64,000 nucleotides of DNA from an uncultured Acidimicrobiales bacterium. GTDB lineage: Bacteria > Actinomycetota > Acidimicrobiia > Acidimicrobiales > DATKAS01. Below are positions 4,350 to 63,714 of this stretch, one piece after another. The position numbers were made by a program, and so were the translations under genes. The number at the start of each line of letters is the position of its first letter. The stretch's first letter is position 1. The notes under the pieces are model-generated. The model saw only the letters and a program-made list of their open reading frames with translations. It ran no database searches and was not told the DNA's origin. The stretch is taken from positions 81,847 to 145,846 of the forward strand of contig CAVSCP010000007.1 in the NCBI GenBank assembly GCA_963726495.1, given 5' to 3'.

Positions 4350-5147
4350 TGCTGACAGGTGACCCAGGCTCGACAGAGCCGCTCGTCGTGACCCACGACG
4401 GGCCGATCGCGACCTTGTGGCTCAATCGACCCGAGAAGCGCAACGCGGTGACGAAGGCGATGTGGGAGGGGATCGCGGCGATCTGCGCCGACCTCGCCAC
4501 CGACCGCAACGTGCGCGTGCTCGTCGTGCGCGGCGCCGGTGACCACTTCTGCGCCGGGGCAGACATCGGAGAGCTCGCGGTGAGCGAGGCGAGCTACGCC
4601 GCCGCGAACGCGGGCGCGGACCACGCGCTCGGCTCGTTCCCGAAGCCAACCGTCGCGTTCATAAGAGGCTCGTGCGTCGGTGGAGGCACGCAGATCGCGA
4701 TCGCGTGCGACGTCCGCATCGCCGACACGTCGGCCGTGTTCGGCATCACGCCCGCGCGGCTCGGCATCGTCTACCCGGCCTTCGGCGTGGATCGAGCGGT
4801 GCGGCTGCTCGGGCCGTCGGCGACGAAGCACCTCCTCTTCTCGGCCGAGCTGATCGGCTGGGAGCGCGCGCTGCGCATCGGGCTCGTCGACGAGGTGCAC
4901 GAGGCCGGCCGCCGCCGACGAGCGGATCGACGTGTTCGCGACGTTGCTCGCGACCGAGCGGTCGCTGCTCACCCAAGAGTCGAGCAAGGCGATGGTCGAC
5001 GAGTGCGTGCGGACCGGCGAGATCTCGCGGGCGACGCAGGCGCGGTGGGGGGCCGAGCTCGCGGCGAGCGCCGATGCCGCGGAGGGCGTCGCCGCGTTCC
5101 TCGAACGGAGATCGCCGCGGTTCACGTGGGCCGGGACGTCGGACTGA
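4349..5147 (+). pseudogene. enoyl-CoA hydratase/isomerase (crotonase) family, one frame switch
   Basis: Contains LNRPEKRNA, FCAGADIGE and GSCVGGG. The last ~70 aa continue in ORF 4932-5147, with the switch near 4915. Confidence 0.8.
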
Positions 5148-5167
5148 GTGCCTGAGTACCGTGGCGC

Positions 5168-5629
5168 ATGCCCAACATCGCACAGCGAATCGCAGAGCTG
5201 GGGATCACGCTTCCTCCCGTGACGGCGGCGGCCGGCAACTACATCGGCGCGAGCAGGGTCGGGAACCTGCTCTTCGTCAGCGGCCACGGGCCTGATCTCG
5301 GCGACGGCAAGTACATCCGCGGCAAGGTCGGACGCGATCTGACGGTCGACGAGGGCATCGCCGCCGCCCGAGCGACCGCGCTGTGCATCCTCGCGACGAT
5401 GGACGCGACCGTCGGGCTCGACCACGTGACGCGCATCGTGAAGGTCTTGGGGATGGTCAACACCGGCCCCGGCTTCAACAACACGCCCGCGATCATCAAC
5501 GGCGCCTCAGACCTGTTCGTCGAGATCTGGGGCGAGGCCGCGGGCAAGCACGCGCGGTCCGCTGTCGGCCTGGCCGAGCTGCCGTTCGACATCGCGGTCG
5601 AGATCGAGCTCGTCGCCGAGGTCGACTGA
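5168..5629 (+). CDS. RidA/YjgF family protein
   Basis: Intact 153-aa ORF. The peptides LFVSGHGP...GKVG and RSAVGLAELPFDIAVEIE are typical of RidA-like proteins. Confidence 0.8.
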   Translation: MPNIAQRIAELGITLPPVTAAAGNYIGASRVGNLLFVSGHGPDLGDGKYIRGKVGRDLTVDEGIAAARATALCILATMDATVGLDHVTRIVKVLGMVNTGPGFNNTPAIINGASDLFVEIWGEAAGKHARSAVGLAELPFDIAVEIELVAEVD

Positions 5630-7830: not shown

Positions 7831-8895
7831 GCGTGGCGGCCGTCCAGCGGCGCGCTCGACCGCGCGGTGCAGCTCGACCAACGCCGCGACGTCCTGGGAG
7901 CGATGGCGGCCCCACCCGCAGTCGGTCGCGGCGCCGAAGTCGTGCACGAACCGCTGCGCGGCGACGATGCGCGCCTTCGCGCCGGCGACGCCGTCCTCGA
8001 GGTGCAGCACGCCGAGGAAGAGCTGCGTCTCGGGACGCAGCTGCAGCTGCCCGAGCGTCTCGAAGAAGCGCACGTCGACGCGGTCGCCCTGCACGGGAAG
8101 GTGGATCCAGTCGAGCGAGCGACCGAGGCTCAGCGTCAGCGCGTTCGCGATGTCGACGAGCGGCTGCGCGTTGTAGGGGCCGCTCGGTGTGATGGCGCTC
8201 GTGGCCGTGGCAGAAGTGGTAGCCGAGCTGCACGTCGCCGGGCACGCTGCGACCGAGCCGCACGAGGCGCTCGACGATGCTCGACCGGGGGTCGGTGAAC
8301 CACGTCGGCATGACGCCGTCGAGCATGGCGAACTCGAAGTTGGTGTCCCACTGCACGGCGAGCTGATCGTGCGGGATCGAGTCGAAGATCGTCGCGAGCT
8401 CGGTCAGCATCGCCGCCTCGTAGAGCGGTTCGATGCGAGCCTGGTCTTCGGGAGCGACGAACGCGGCGATCGGCGCGAGCGGGGTCGGCAGTGACACCTG
8501 GAAGCGGCACTGCGAGGGGATCAGGCCGTCGCGCTTGCGGCGGGCGAAGATGCGGTACGAGCTGAGTGGCCGCCTGCGCGTAGCCGAGCTGCTCGAAGCG
8601 CAGGGTGTCGATCGACTCGTCGTCGCTGACGCGCAGCCGCGGCAGGGCACGGTGCGAGTCGGCGCCGGGTGGGCACACCTCGAACTCGGGCCGGGAGCTG
8701 AGCACCGGGTACTGCCACACGATCCAGTCGGACCGGGGGCCGGTCTCGCCGTCCGGGATCCGGTCGAGTCGGTCGCCGAGCTCGGACGCCGCCAGCTGGA
8801 ACACCTCGTCGGCGCTCCGAAGGGGGACGCTTCCGACGAGCAGCACCCCGCCTGTGACGCAGGCCGTTCGTGTCGCCTGTCGCTTCCGCGGTCAT
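7830..8895 (-). pseudogene. conserved hypothetical protein (family not assigned), several frame switches
   Basis: Coherent peptides LLVGSVPLRSADEVFQLA, QVSLPTPLAPIAAFV, QLGYHFCHGH and DWIHLPVQGDRVD lie in three frames. In the open frame, no stop separates this gene from the methyltransferase downstream. Confidence 0.35.
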
Positions 8896-9215
8896 GCGCG
8901 CACCTCCGTGCTCGGGCCCCGTGACTCGGGAAGAACAGTGTCCGGCGCGGCGCGAGGGCGGGCCAAGGCCAGCGTTCGCCGCTCACGAACGACCGGGTGA
9001 ACAGTGCGCTATGCGAATCGGTGTCGCGCAGCGTGTGCGCATTGCGTTCACGTTGCGAGCACATCTCAGGAAGGCTGACACCGTTGCTCAATTGCGTCGC
9101 GCCGTTGTACGGTGCGCCCGCCACACCCGACAGGGGGAGGTGTGGGGGGAGCGGTGGCGGGTGAGTCGAACTTCCCGACTCGCATCGTCACCCGCGACAT
9201 CGGGAGGGTACATTC

Positions 9216-10619
9216 ATGAAGCGTCTACTGCCGGTCCTACTTGCGACCGGCGCGCTCTTGTTCGCCGCGTGCGGAGATGACTCAGGGTCTTCGACCGCCA
9301 CGACGGCGAGCTGGAGGAGCAGCGACCACTGCCGGCGGCACGGCGCGGCAACGACGGCAGCCGCGGGTGGCGCGGCGACGACCGCAGCGGGCGCCGCCGC
9401 CGCGAGCACCAACATCCAGAAGCCCGGCGAGTGCGGCCTGGGCACCGGTCAGAAGGCCACCGGCGACCCGATCAAGATCGGTGTCGATCGACACCAACGT
9501 GCCCGGCATCGACTTCACCTGGATCTCGAGCATGACGAAGGCCTACTTCGACTGCGTGAACGACAACGGTGGCATCAACGGCCGTCCGATCCAGTACATC
9601 GACGAGGACCGAGCACATCGACCCGCAGAGATCGCCGGCGCTCGCGAAGAAGCTCATCGAGGAGGACGGCGTGCTCGGTCTCGTGGGCAACACGAGCATC
9701 ATCGACTGCAGCGTCAACGGCGACGTACTACGCGTCGCAAGGGCTTCTTCCCGATCATCGCCGGCGTCGACCAGGCCTGCTTCGAGAACCCCAACTTCTC
9801 GGCCGTGAACATGGGCCCGTACTACTCGAGCCTCGGCGGGGCGCAGGCCGCGCTGCGCGCCGGGGCGAAGGGCACGATGGTCATCGTCACGCCGAACCAG
9901 CCCGGCGTCGACATCATCAACAGCGGCGTCGTCGACTTCGCCGAAGCAGAACGGCCTCAAGGGCGTCAGCCTGAACGAGGACGTGCCGATCGCCGACCCC
10001 GCCGGTCCTCGCGCAGAAGCTGGTGCAGACCGCCGGCGACGGCGGCGCCGTCGTGCTCGACTTCACCGGCCCCACCGTCGTTCCGCTGCTCCAGGCGATC
10101 GACTCCGCCGGGCCTCGTCGACAAGGTCATCTGGGCGAGCTCGACTCCGCCGAACGACCCGTCGGTGGCCAAGGCGCTCAGCCCGGCATGGAACGGCAAG
10201 TTCCTCATCAACGCCGAGTTCAACACGCTCGACTCGGGCAAGCCCGACCAGAACCAGATGAACGAGATCCACGACAAGTACGCACCGAGCACTGCCGATC
10301 TCGAGCTTCGCCCAGATGGGCTACCTCGCCGGCCGGGTGGCCACTGACGCGCTCTTGAGCATCAAGGGCGACATCACCGTCGAGAGCGTCAACGCAGGCG
10401 TTCAAGAACATGAAGAACTTCTCCAGCGACCTGTGGTGCAAGCCCTGGTACTTCGACAGCACGATCGGCAAGAACGTGTCGAACAACACCGACATCACCG
10501 TCACCCCGCAGGACGGGAAGATGGTGCAGAGTGAGGATTGCTTCGAAATCGCCGCAATGGACGCCAACCCGCTCGCCCAGATCCGGGCCAAGGAGCAGGA
10601 GCTCGGCCTGAACTCCTGA
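9216..10619 (+). pseudogene. ABC transporter substrate-binding lipoprotein (branched-chain amino acid/LivJ-like), at least 6 frame switches
   Basis: Lipoprotein signal MKRLLPVLLATGALLFAAC followed by a Thr/Ala-rich linker. Family peptides include GINGRPIQYIDED, GVLGLVGNTS and VIWASSTPPNDPS. Confidence 0.7.
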
Positions 10620-58680: not shown

Positions 58681-58755
58681 GCCCCTGTAGCTCAGTCCGG
58701 AAAGAGCGGCGGACTTCTAATCCGAAGGCCGGAGGTTCGAATCCTCCCAGGGGCG
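58681..58755 (+). tRNA. tRNA-Arg (anticodon TCT)
   Basis: GCCCCTG-TA-GCTC...GAGC-G-GCGGA-CTTCTAA-TCCGA-AGGCC-GGAGG-TTCGAAT-CCTCC-CAGGGGC-G. Confidence 0.9.
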
Positions 58756-58815
58756 CTGCCTGGGACTTCGTGCGAGGACAGCGCGCGCTGCGTTGAGCAC
58801 AGCGCTCGGACAACG
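58714..58815 (+). repeat. att-like repeat, copy 1 (tRNA-Arg anticodon loop to 3' end plus 60 nt of flank)
   Basis: This 102-nt segment recurs at 59930-60031 (2 mismatches) and at 62263-62364. Confidence 0.85.
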
Positions 58816-59847: not shown

Positions 59848-60041
59848 CGAGACAACGGATAACTCGCGTCGTGTCGCTCGCGAGTGACCTGCGATCTTCC
59901 TGTTGAGCACAGCGCTCAGTGCTGTAGGCCTTCTAATCCGAAGGCCGGAGGTTCGAATCCTCCCAGGGGCGCTGCCTGGGACTTCGTGCGAGGACAGCGC
60001 GCGCCGCGTTGAGCACAGCGCTCGCACAACGGATAACTCGC
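59848..60041 (+). repeat. att-like repeat, copy 2 (about 194 nt: 82-nt left arm, 102-nt tRNA-Arg-derived core, 10 nt on the right)
   Basis: The core is identical to copy 1 except for 2 nt. It lacks the tRNA 5' half. Left arm and right edge are shared with copy 3. Confidence 0.85.
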
Positions 60042-60211: not shown

Positions 60212-61792
60212 ATGCCGGACGCTCGCGGTCGCAAGCTTGGTGTTCTCGTGACCGGTGCGACGGGTTACATCGGTGGGCGTCTCGTTCCGCGGCTGGTCGA
60301 GCGAGGCCACGCCGTTCGCTGCCTCGCTCGCGACGCTGGAGGGCTGGCCGGTCGGTCGTGGACCGGTGTCCAGATCCTCGAAGGCGATCTCGCCGACGGC
60401 GAGGCGACCGAGCGCGCGTTGTCCGGTATCGATGTCGCGTACTACCTCGTGCACTCGATGGAGAGCGGCGCGCACTATCGCGACCGGGATCGAGCGATCG
60501 CCAAGACGTTCGCCGAAGCCTCTGCCCGCCGGGGGGTATCGCGGATCGTGTACCTCGGGGGTCTTGGCGACTCCACCGACACGCGAGCGAGCATCTCGTG
60601 TCGCGGCGGGAGGTGGGAAGGATGCTCGCGTCCACGGGTGTCCCGGTCGTCGAGTTCAGGGCGGGCATGATCGTCGGCTCCGGTTCGATCAGCTTCGAGA
60701 TGATCCGCTATCTCACCGAGCGGCTTCCGATCATGGTGACGCCCCGCTGGGTCCACAGCCAGTGTCAACCGATTGGCGTGCGATCGGTGCTCGACTATCT
60801 CGTGGGGGCCCTCGACCATCCTGACGCTGCGGGGGTCTACGAGATTGGTGGACCAGAGGTCCTCACCTATAACGACATGATGGTGGAGTACGCGCACATA
60901 CGCGGCCTGCGCCGTCTCATCGTCGCGCTGCCCGTGCCGCACCCAGAGTGGAGCGCGCGGTTCGTCGACCTAGTCACGCCCATTCCTTACGCCATCGCGC
61001 AGCCACTCATCGAGGGCTTGCGGACCAACATGATCGTTCGAGACGACCGGGCGCGACGCGAATTCAATGTCCATCCAATGGGCTTCCACGAAGCAGTCGA
61101 ACTCGCGTTGCAGCGCGTTGCCGACGATCAGGTCGAGACAACGTGGGCGTCGAGCCTCGCGAGCCTGAGTGCGGACATTGAACCGCGCAAGCAGCTGTCG
61201 CTCCACGAAGGCATGCTCTTCGAACGTCATCGACGTCACGCCAACGCCGACGCACAACAGGTCTTCGATGTCATCTGCCGCGCTCGGTGGCGACGCCGGC
61301 TGGCCCGCCGGGAACTGGCTGTGGCAACTCCGGGGCCTGATCGACCGTGTCTTCGGCGGGGTCGGCATGCGCCAAGGGCGGCGCCACCCGCGTGAGTTGC
61401 GTCTTGGTGAGCCGCTCGACTTCTGGCGCGTCGAAGCCCTCGAGCCGCCGCACCTCCTGCGCCTGCGCGCCGAGATGCTCCTACCGGGCAGGGCGTGGCT
61501 TCAGTTCGAGGTGCTCCCGAGCGCACACGGTTCGAGGATCGAGCAAACCGCCTTCTTCGAGCCACACGGAGTGTTGGGTTACCTGTACTGGTACGCCGTC
61601 CGCCCGTTCCACCGGTTCATCTTCCCGGGCCTGATCCGCGCGATCCAACAGCGAGCCGACATCCCCGTCGCCTCGGCCACGCACGCCGAACATCGCAAGG
61701 AGACTGCGGCGCAATCGCATTCCTGCTCAACGGTCTCGATGCCGTCGCCGGCCATCATTGCACCACGAGTTCTCGAAACAGGGAAGTCCTGA
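60212..61792 (+). pseudogene. NAD(P)-binding SDR-family (NmrA/epimerase-like) protein with a C-terminal DUF2867-like domain, two frame switches
   Basis: VLVTGATGYIGGRLV Rossmann motif. The C-terminal peptide is LDFWRVEALEPPHLLRLRAEMLLPGRAWLQFEV. Switches near 60590 and 61270. Confidence 0.65.
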
Positions 61793-62180: not shown

Positions 62181-62374
62181 CGAGACAACGGATAACTCGC
62201 GTCGTGTCGCTCAGGAGTGAGCAGGGAACTTCCTGTTGAGCACAGCGCTCAGTGCTGTAGGCCTTCTAATCCGAAGGCCGGAGGTTCGAATCCTCCCAGG
62301 GGCGCTGCCTGGGATTTCGTGCGAGGTCAGCGCGCGCCGCGTCGAGCACAGCGCTCGCACAACGGATAAGTCGC
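62181..62374 (+). repeat. att-like repeat, copy 3
   Basis: Collinear with 59848-60041. The core has 3 mismatches to copy 2, and the left arm has a 17-nt variable patch. Confidence 0.85.
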
Positions 62375-62468
62375 CGTCATCGGCATTCGCTTCGGGCGAT
62401 GCGCTGGGCTGCGATGCCAGCCACGGGCGCCTTCGCCGGCACGCGGATCTGCGACCCGTGGGCTCCGG

Positions 62469-63116
62469 TCAGTCCGCCTCGGCAGCCTTGCGCCGCGTTG
62501 ACCAGGCGTCGAGGAAGCTCGTTGCCATGTCGCTCATCCGGATCGCTTCCTGCTGGTCGACGGGGTCCTGCAGACGTCCCGACAAACCGCGGACCCCGAA
62601 CCGAATGCCCCGGAAGTAGGGACCGAACGTCTCAGTCCGCAGCGCGCCGGGATCGTCGACGGGCTCGACGTCAGGCGTCCAGGTCGGCACCGAGATCGCG
62701 GGGAGCCTGAGCGCGCGCAGATCGGAGAGCACATCGTCGTCGTTCGGCGGACGGTCTGCGAAATCGCGGGAGCGGTACCGGCGCACCTCGCGACCCTCCG
62801 CGTCGAAGATGAGCATCGCCGGCCAGGCGATCCCGCCGCGATCGGCCGGGTTCCAGAGATCGAGCTGCTTCAACAGCCAGTCGCCGCCCGGATCGCTGCG
62901 AATCGGGAACGGCAGATGCCAACGCCGGGCAAGCGCGGCGTTGCGTTCCGGTGAGTCGACCGACAGCGCGCAGACATCGCTGCCGAGCGACTGGATCTCG
63001 CCGAACTCGTTCGCCAACCGCACCAGCTGGCCGCAGCAATACGGTCACCAATCGCCGCGGATGGTCACGAGGACCAGCGCGCCGCTCGCGCGCAGTAGCT
63101 CTGTGACGGCGGCCAT
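62469..63116 (-). CDS. PRX_like2/AhpC-TSA-type redoxin with an in-frame TGA at the first Cys of CxxC (candidate selenoprotein, or a pseudogene)
   Basis: ATG 63116 gives MAAVTELLRASGALVLVTIRGDW-TGA(63045-63047)-PYCCGQLVRLANEFGEIQSLG... in the same frame down to 62469. The N-terminus may extend to GTG 63174 through one frame switch. Confidence 0.55.
63013..63031 (-). promoter_or_regulatory. SECIS-like hairpin candidate downstream of the in-frame UGA
   Basis: The RNA GCCAGC-UGGUGCG-GUUGGC starts 14 nt after the UGA. It has 6 bp, one of them G.U, and a G-rich apical loop. Confidence 0.25.
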
Positions 63117-63170
63117 GCCTGCACACTACGTCCGCTTCGCGTGTGGGGACGGCGGCGCGAGGAGTCGCCG

Positions 63171-63656
63171 TCACGCTGTCGACGCGACGGGCAGGAGGGC
63201 GATCAGCGGCAGGGCGTGGATGACGGCTCGCCGACTCTCCTCGGATCCGTCGTACGGCTTCCCTGAGAGACGCCCGAGGACACGACGGACGACCGGCCTC
63301 ATCCATCGATTTCGCTCCTCGTACTGCCGCAACACCTCGACCGCTTCGTCCTCGCGGAGGTCGCGGTGAGTGACCGGACATGAGTGCCGCCGCGAATGTG
63401 ATCGCGGTCGGAGTGCCGGCGTGGATGTTGCGGTACCAGTCGGCAGTCGGACCCCATCCCGACATGATGATCACCTCGCCCGAGCCGCGGTCCCAGCTCA
63501 GAACTTCGACGACCGTGTCGTAGTGGGCTCCCGACCGTCGCCCCGTGTGCTCGATGCTGCACGAACCGATGTCCGAGCAACCAACCGACGTTGCCAGCGG
63601 TAAAGGAAGTTCGGCGCCTTCAGCACGATTCGCAGCACCGGACCAGGCGGCTTCAT
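63171..63656 (-). pseudogene. nitroreductase-family deazaflavin-dependent oxidoreductase (DDN-like), frame switches
   Basis: MKPPGPVLRIVLKAPNFLYRWQRRLV..., IEHTGRRSGAHYDTVVEVL..., WGPTADWYRNI... and ...RNRWMRPVVRRVL lie in different frames. Confidence 0.55.
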
Positions 63657-63714
63657 GTCGCCATGCTCGCGCCTCGTAGACGCTGCGACGCGTTGTACGC
63701 AGCTGGTTGATCGC

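Follow-up and report, generated by a model that had tools for sequence, protein, structure and literature searches.

Does the TGA codon that breaks the reading frame of a redoxin gene in an uncultured Acidimicrobiales bacterium end a protein, or does it encode selenocysteine (Sec)? The question concerns a stretch of 64,000 nucleotides (nt), here called the window (assembly GCA_963726495.1, contig CAVSCP010000007.1, positions 81,847 to 145,846 of the forward strand), which carries the gene on its minus strand. A preliminary description of this DNA had proposed that the TGA stands in place of the first redox cysteine of the protein and is followed by a hairpin of the kind that directs Sec insertion in bacteria (a Sec insertion sequence, SECIS). 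To answer the question, we compared the gene with its relatives. In these the TGA is conserved and pairs with Cys in homologous proteins, protein-level selection runs in one frame across it, and the hairpin is conserved and covaries. Judging by these sequence comparisons, we consider it highly probable that the TGA truly encodes Sec and that a SECIS hairpin serves it.

Reading frame of the gene and conservation of its TGA

On the minus strand, one frame leads from ATG 63116 through MAAVTELLRASGALVLVTIRGDW to the TGA at 63047-63045, and then through PYCCGQLVRLANEF and onward to the terminal TGA at 62471-62469. The internal TGA (context RGDW-TGA-PYCC) is the single in-frame break of that frame, as the preliminary description had it. 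The start at ATG 63116 is unambiguous, because an in-frame TAG lies upstream of it with no start codon between them (Table 1). The frame switch that had been invoked for the N-terminus proved unneeded, since every relative, Cys forms included, begins with a start codon 19-27 codons ahead of the Sec/Cys column. The full-length relatives have 211-222 amino acids (aa).

The DNA of the relatives was taken from species-representative genomes, metagenomes and long contigs. We read TGA at the same column and in the same frame in 30/30 Sec-form relatives for which the DNA was read (24 distinct gene sequences). These relatives show 47-96% protein identity and belong to at least four phyla, their record titles naming Acidimicrobiales/Acidimicrobiia, Ilumatobacteraceae, Planctomycetota, Acidobacteriota and Candidatus Binatia. 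They fall into two subgroups, with the motifs RGDW-U-PYCCGQLV[RQ]LAN and LRGDF-U-P[YF]CCGQAVRLAN. Four independent metagenome assemblies of near-identical strains show no difference at 63045-63047 and no indel in 62469-63116. Where the preliminary description had asked whether close relatives or other assemblies might carry TGC, what was read is thus TGA, in all the Sec-form relatives and in the four assemblies alike.

The codons around the TGA indicate how it is passed in translation. The residues R, G and D at positions -4, -3 and -2 have an amino-acid entropy of 0 and a third-position entropy of 0.94-1.49, and amino-acid conservation together with synonymous variation was found on both flanks of the TGA, in the same frame. 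Since invariant residues with varying third positions occur on both sides, both halves of the gene must be translated in one frame. Since 14/21 of these genes themselves terminate at TGA, UGA still serves as a normal stop and has not been reassigned throughout the genomes.

In the close clade, the Sec column is occupied by Cys in P0029 (TGT), L011 (TGC), P0107 and P0121, by Ser in P0123, P0125 and P0138, and by Arg in P0006 (CGA). A single substitution in TGA suffices to give a Cys, Ser or Arg codon; the codon itself was read in P0029, L011 and P0006 only. Distant full-length relatives (35-41% identical) have the C-terminal region in common with the window protein and contain the sequence ...RGDWCPYCNGQL... 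with a CxxC, read as RGDWCPYC. At the aligned position, curated proteins of the PRX_like2 type have FYRGGWCPYC or FYRGVWCPYC, and because their WCPYC aligns there, the TGA occupies the position of the first redox Cys. The motif had therefore been placed correctly in the preliminary description: the homologue alignments set the CxxC at the TGA column, with Sec/Cys pairs. The Arg form P0006 was found on four contigs (among them L029, 10001-10642, and L030, 526-1167), and combines CGA with seven of the eight pairs of the hairpin described below. This suggests a recent replacement of Sec by Arg, with loss of the catalytic nucleophile.

A conserved RNA hairpin 3' of the UGA

Downstream of the UGA, inside the coding sequence, the RNA contains a hairpin with an 8-bp stem and a GUN loop (GCCAGCUG-GUG-CGGUUGGC in the window). 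The stem-loop follows a 13-nt spacer and extends from +14 to +32, which places its apical G-U about 22-23 nt past the UGA. The hairpin GCCAGC/GUUGGC of the preliminary description was located where it had been predicted, at 63031-63013 and starting 14 nt after the UGA; its shape, however, had to be revised from 6 bp with a 7-nt loop to 8 bp with a GUN loop.

The RNAalifold consensus of 22 distinct Sec-form sequences is a single helix, in which columns 17-24 pair with columns 28-35 around a 3-nt loop (in the window, 63031-63024 with 63020-63013). Standard pairs fill 98.9% of the pair cells in the 22 sequences, whereas shifting the partner by 1-3 nt leaves 17-41%, and a covariation score as high as the observed one was reached by 0/500 shuffles. 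Five of the eight pairs vary, and four of these five are paired in every sequence. The varying pairs include 18-34 (CG/UG), 21-31 (GC/GU/AU), 22-30 (CG/GU/AU) and 23-29 (UG/UA/CG), and two hairpin pairs have compensatory changes. The loop-closing pair 24-28 is GC and is mismatched in 2/22 sequences. In the subgroup with GQA, the change of the 5'-arm Leu to Ala is accompanied by a synonymous change of the 3'-arm Arg codon from CGG to CGU. Residues G25 and U26 of the loop are invariant, and the third loop base can be any of the four.

The choice of codons in the stem is restricted as well. The Leu codon of the 3' arm is NUG in 22/22 sequences, whereas CUC makes up 39% of the Leu codons elsewhere in these genes; the stem Arg codon is never CGC (39% elsewhere), and the Gly codon is solely GGY. 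Third-position entropy is 0.49 bits for the stem codons, 1.73 for the loop codon and 1.36 elsewhere, and outside the stem, invariant Gly, Pro and Ala have values of 1.2-1.6 bits. RNA-level selection is thus located precisely on the stem.

Predicted fold and chemistry of the protein

The read-through protein matched the Pfam families AhpC-TSA (PF00578, 4.4e-14) and Redoxin (2.2e-07), and in an alignment with solved peroxiredoxin (Prx) structures the TGA column matches their peroxidatic Cys. The natural Cys form P0029, which has 52% identity with the window protein, was modelled with AlphaFold2 from a 118-sequence alignment. The model has a predicted local distance difference test score (pLDDT) of 94.2; its thioredoxin/peroxiredoxin core leads through a linker into the two long helices 156-174 and 179-211. 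In a Foldseek comparison with the PDB, the core alone was aligned (PrxQ/BCP, Prx6 and AhpC; 110-135 columns, template modelling score ~0.5), and the C-terminal ~85-90 aa had neither a Pfam match at E<=0.1 nor a PDB counterpart by Foldseek. The redox centre is thioredoxin-like, W-U-P-Y-C; the next residue is a second Cys, which does not vary in the close clade. P99, which belongs to a near-invariant Trp-Pro, is probably the counterpart of the thioredoxin-type cis-proline.

By the standard bacterial mechanism, the UGA at 63047-63045 would be decoded as Sec in a 215-residue thioredoxin-fold protein of the PRX_like2 type (WCxxC), with the 8-bp hairpin and its apical G-U loop acting as the SECIS element. 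The hairpin would bind SelB carrying Sec-tRNA(Sec), which could then be delivered to the ribosome with the UGA in its A site. In the finished protein, U24 would be the attacking selenolate, and C27 would resolve it as a selenenylsulfide (UxxC). The dependence on SelB and tRNA-Sec, the incorporation of selenium and the catalytic roles of these residues are what we infer from the conserved features of the gene and the protein. The enzyme is most likely a selenol/thiol-disulfide oxidoreductase that cycles via the U24-C27 selenenylsulfide; since the Prx motif PxxxTxxC is missing, we do not take it for a canonical peroxiredoxin.

Relation to described selenoproteins

Peroxiredoxin-like selenoproteins with a UxxC centre have been known since 2004-2005. 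The "Prx-like protein" family of the Sargasso Sea was described as having distant Prx homology, with a thioredoxin-like UxxC replacing TxxU (PMC1088965). The "Prx-like 1" family of the Global Ocean Sampling (GOS) data (pfam00578, UxxC), with 225 Sec versus 2,740 Cys sequences, was among the most abundant selenoprotein families (PMC2398784), and a 2026 review places Prx-like 1 among the families "predicted with high confidence" (PMC13188914). The window gene resembles Prx-like 1 in its PF00578 domain, its U24-P-Y-C27 centre with Sec at the first redox position, its downstream SECIS-like hairpin and its Cys homologues. By domain and motif, the features in which it was compared with that family (reference member WP_010940744.1), it appears to fall within the definition. 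The window clade differs from Prx-like 1, however, in its short N-terminus (19-27 aa before U, with no Prx N-terminal beta-hairpin), its UxxCC centre and its C-terminal helical region of ~85 aa without Pfam or PDB match. Moreover, Sec forms far exceed Cys forms in the window clade, the reverse of the proportion in the GOS family.

The UxxC selenoprotein is probably a distinct subfamily within the known Prx-like selenoprotein class. A bolder proposal, that it represents a distinct, unrecognised selenoprotein family rather than a member of Prx-like 1, may be made only tentatively, and we are inclined to doubt it. Its basis would be the combination of U-P-[YF]-C-C, the short N-terminus, the private C-terminal helical domain and a SECIS that hardly varies among Actinomycetota, Acidobacteriota, Planctomycetota and Binatia, with Sec as the rule and Cys, Ser and Arg as rare forms.

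Other proteins share some of these features. The "peroxiredoxin-like family protein" records of the Prokaryotic Genome Annotation Pipeline (PRX_like2-type; WP_180727700.1 and WP_058758872.1) have the same (F/Y)RGxW-C/U-PYC signature and thioredoxin core; they are Cys forms with 25-32% identity to the window protein, a ~65-aa N-terminal extension and no C-terminal helical region. In the Sec form reported for cd02970 the motif is UxxS, in contrast to the UxxC of the window protein. SelL, described as a Prx-like protein (PMC2398784), has a fold of the Prx-like2 type and Sec in a CxxC-type centre, and the corresponding model ("SelL-related redox protein", NF040769) was the best NCBIfam match. No NCBIfam model recognised the window protein, and since NF040769 gave 20 bits against a cut-off of 120, the protein is not a member of it. 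The Sec-containing Prx of the Eubacterium acidaminophilum type (TxxU) belongs to the same Pfam family and has the same fold. Its motif is PxxxTxxC/U, however, whereas the window sequence LVTIRGDW-U is without that motif and has Gly at -3 and Val at -7 (Val/Thr in the family). The resolving Cys of the window protein lies at +3 from Sec, as in thioredoxin and unlike in Prx.

The hairpin resembles bacterial SECIS elements of the E. coli fdhF type in being a coding-sequence stem-loop that lies just 3' of the UGA and whose small apical loop, ~20 nt past the UGA, has a G followed by U; this G-U is comparable to the fdhF loop positions G23/U24. It differs from the fdhF-type element in having no bulged U and a loop of 3 nt, or of 5-7 nt with the top pairs open. 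No Rfam model detected the window hairpin. The general SECIS features, a stem-loop immediately 3' of the UGA and a small G-containing apical loop (PMC1088965), were both found in it.

Objections and the absence of nearby selenocysteine genes

Several observations weigh against a Sec codon served by a SECIS. No selA, selB, selD or tRNA-Sec was found, either in the 64 kb of the window or in the ~10 kb around the genes of the relatives; for selA, selB, selC and selD in the window, the preliminary description had already noted this. The hairpin is thermodynamically unexceptional in any single sequence (z -0.76 to -0.96), and the lowest-energy fold in the 54-nt context of the window is a non-conserved alternative. 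All of the hairpin pairs are present in the Cys form P0029 (8/8, of which three are G-U), and 7/8 are present in the Arg form P0006. Since these forms retain the pairs, conservation of the peptide GQLVRLA could explain part of the conservation of the hairpin. Finally, the shuffles with which the covariation score was controlled (0/500) take no account of the kinship among the 22 sequences.

As for the folding energy, the window hairpin has a z of -0.96 for the 29-nt element and of -0.81 for 54 nt, and 35-36 of 200 shuffles fold as well. The earlier caution that GC-rich RNA folds easily is therefore justified for the window sequence taken by itself, and we excluded folding energy as evidence because it was not significant against the shuffles. 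The synonymous-site data, however, argue against peptide conservation as the whole explanation of the hairpin. We also considered whether the hairpin is broken in the Cys forms. This is partly true, as L011 has 5/8 pairs (read by eye) and the distant L028 is without the hairpin in its fold, but the pairs retained in P0029 and P0006 make hairpin loss in non-Sec forms unusable as evidence.

The search for the machinery covered both the window and the loci of the relatives. With E. coli SelA, SelB and SelD, tblastn gave no match in the window or in any relative locus; ARAGORN found no tRNA on any of the relative loci, and a permissive Rfam scan of the whole window gave no tRNA-Sec or SECIS match. 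A tRNA-like sequence at 62232-62300 was considered as tRNA-Sec and rejected, being a remnant of tRNA-Arg(UCU) and an exact copy of the 3' half of 58681-58756. A scan of the window for other same-frame TGAs, based on GC content at third codon positions, was also discarded: its thresholds missed the true site, and two matches resemble adjacent open reading frames (ORFs). Complete Sec machinery has been reported in Actinomarina, which belongs to another order of the class Acidimicrobiia (bioRxiv 10.64898/2026.04.03.716425), and an Acidobacteriota species is on a list of Sec users (PMC12013277), so that by analogy the Sec trait is plausible in these lineages.

With no Sec machinery in the window or in the relatives' loci, one may ask whether the UGA is recoded to another amino acid, giving a full-length but selenium-free protein. 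Such a protein could arise from a Sec-like tRNA that is delivered by SelB and carries Cys, or from near-cognate reading as Trp, Cys or Arg stimulated by the hairpin. SelB-compatible tRNA-Cys species exist in some bacteria, and the Cys, Ser and Arg variants of the close clade indicate that the column tolerates other residues in some lineages. We nevertheless regard this recoding as improbable. The UGA and the hairpin occur together in at least four phyla, a distribution more in keeping with the universal SelB/SECIS system than with a set of lineage-specific oddities, and the position of the hairpin and its G-U loop match SECIS features. If the product contained Cys, the one-step change of TGA to TGY would be neutral and should be common, whereas only three of the 118 aligned homologues of the first search span the column, and two of these read Cys.

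Truncated gene calls in public records

In a search of a large protein collection, we obtained ~120 close homologues, nearly all of 160-185 aa and spanning the C-terminal 85% of the query. Of the 118 that were aligned, 115 had been called from a start after the Sec column, and none starts between residues 6 and 27. Exactly at Val/Met32, which is the GUG/AUG of the hairpin loop, 56/118 begin; homologues without a start codon at residue 32 were called from later positions (residues 34-81). Only 3/118 homologues of this first search span the Sec column, two of them with Cys. In the collection searched, the records of this selenoprotein family are thus almost throughout truncated calls without the Sec-x-x-Cys centre, and functional or structural inference from such calls is wrong because that catalytic centre is missing.

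Taken at face value, the same records would mean that translation stops at the UGA and that a separate 184-aa protein without CxxC is made from GUG 63023, the upstream 23 codons being a leader or untranslated. Gene callers give such a model for 115/118 homologues, and GUG or AUG is usually present at residue 32. We find the public annotation very improbable, however, because same-frame selection on amino acids is seen in the 11 codons that precede the UGA and in the 7 that separate it from the GUG, and because the flanks and the downstream part together rebuild the exact PRX_like2 motif (F/Y)RGxW-[C/U]-PYC. The Cys forms are translated as one protein. The supposed start is a Val/Met in a conserved helix, many members are without a start codon there, and it would lie inside the loop of a stable hairpin.

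Two records depart from the common pattern. P0004 and P0041, entries from contigs of 69.6 and 37.1 kb, have 83-88% identity with the window protein. Both are calls of the same gene with a shifted frame: their middle part is correct, but an unrelated sequence is attached at the N-terminal or C-terminal end. This points to indel errors in further assemblies of the lineage.

Genomic surroundings of the gene

In the window, the upstream neighbour of the redoxin gene (63171-63660, minus strand) is distributed among at least four frames; in the related locus L002 (2085-2945) it forms one intact ORF, and this orthologue has a weak F420H2_quin_red match (21.6 bits against a cut-off of 22). Single bases of the window at 63391, 63555/6 and 63593/4 have no counterpart in independent short-read contigs, so the breaks look like 1-nt insertion errors of a (probably long-read) assembly and not like a real pseudogene. 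The earlier view of the window as full of indels is thus borne out for the neighbouring gene, with its 1-nt insertions, but not for the redoxin gene, in which no indel was seen in 62469-63116. That the TGA itself could be a nonsense mutation, the mark of a pseudogene or an error of an indel-rich long-read assembly, as the assembly-specific insertions in the neighbour and the frame-shifted copies P0004 and P0041 in other assemblies might lead one to suspect, is hardly credible for a codon that is common to 30/30 Sec-form relatives and four independent assemblies, in a gene with no indel against those assemblies and with selection on the codons of both flanks.

On the long contigs, the neighbourhoods (+/-10 kb) contained no sel genes and no conserved partner. 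The selenoprotein gene often adjoins integrases, transposases or group II intron reverse transcriptases. In L034 (contig_27437, 1.63 Mb, ~8757-9239), L035 and L029, mobile elements occur within 10 kb of the gene, near contig ends; they comprise two group II intron reverse transcriptases, IS21, ISL3 and DDE transposases, a resolvase and phage-type integrases. Such surroundings suggest that the gene may have spread horizontally. In L002, the closest relative on a long contig, an ORF with a thioredoxin-like sequence (4457-5209, minus strand; …VVVDFWAAWCGPCR…, identified by eye) follows ~1 kb after the selenoprotein gene and is encoded on the other strand. It may be a redox partner, and it was not conserved in the other neighbourhoods examined.

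Two copies of a ~194-nt unit, 95% identical to each other, lie on the plus strand of the window at 59848-60041 and 62181-62374; the unit contains the 3' half of tRNA-Arg(TCT) without any change. The intact tRNA-Arg gene (58681-58756, plus strand) lies upstream of both. Together these sequences form attachment-site (att)-like direct repeats around segments of ~1.2 and ~2.3 kb, with no integrase seen between them. One of the bracketed segments contains a DUF2867 gene (61169-61792) and an ORF without Pfam match (60358-61395). The last copy of the unit ends ~95 nt from the stop codon of the selenoprotein gene, and synteny with L002 breaks at 62466.

Table 1. Coordinates of the candidate selenoprotein gene and of its parts in the window
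Feature	Position	Strand	Remarks
Complete candidate selenoprotein gene	62469..63116	-	215 codons (M1...U24...D215, recoded codon counted) and terminal TGA 62471-62469
Start codon ATG	63116-63114	-	In-frame TAG 63128-63126 lies 3 codons upstream; no start codon between
UGA read as putative selenocysteine U24	63047-63045	-	Candidate nucleophile of the U-P-Y-C(-C) redox centre
Codons of C27 (putative resolving Cys of UxxC) and C28	63033..63038	-	TGY TGY invariant in the alignment of relatives; amino-acid entropy 0
SECIS-like hairpin	63013..63031	-	5' arm 63031-63024; loop GUG 63023-63021; 3' arm 63020-63013
GUG (Val32) of the hairpin loop	63021..63023	-	False start in gene calls, giving a 184-aa ORF 62469-63023
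C-terminal region of ~85 aa (linker and two long helices)	62472..62729	-	From the predicted model; no Pfam or PDB counterpart

Significance

The main value of the finding lies in the correction of the annotation and in a marker of Sec use; it brings no new mechanism and leaves the knowledge of Sec insertion unchanged. On the side of method, the locus indicates that a bacterial SECIS can be validated through synonymous-site constraint and covariation where the folding energy of GC-rich RNA is uninformative. The gene is a convenient marker of Sec decoding in metagenome-assembled genomes of soil Acidimicrobiales, Acidobacteriota, Planctomycetota and Binatia, and so bears on the use of selenium in soil. 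Should the family prove to be distinct from Prx-like 1, it would point to Sec decoding that is widespread among soil Acidimicrobiales and had gone unreported, and the substrate of the enzyme may differ from those of the known Prx-like proteins.

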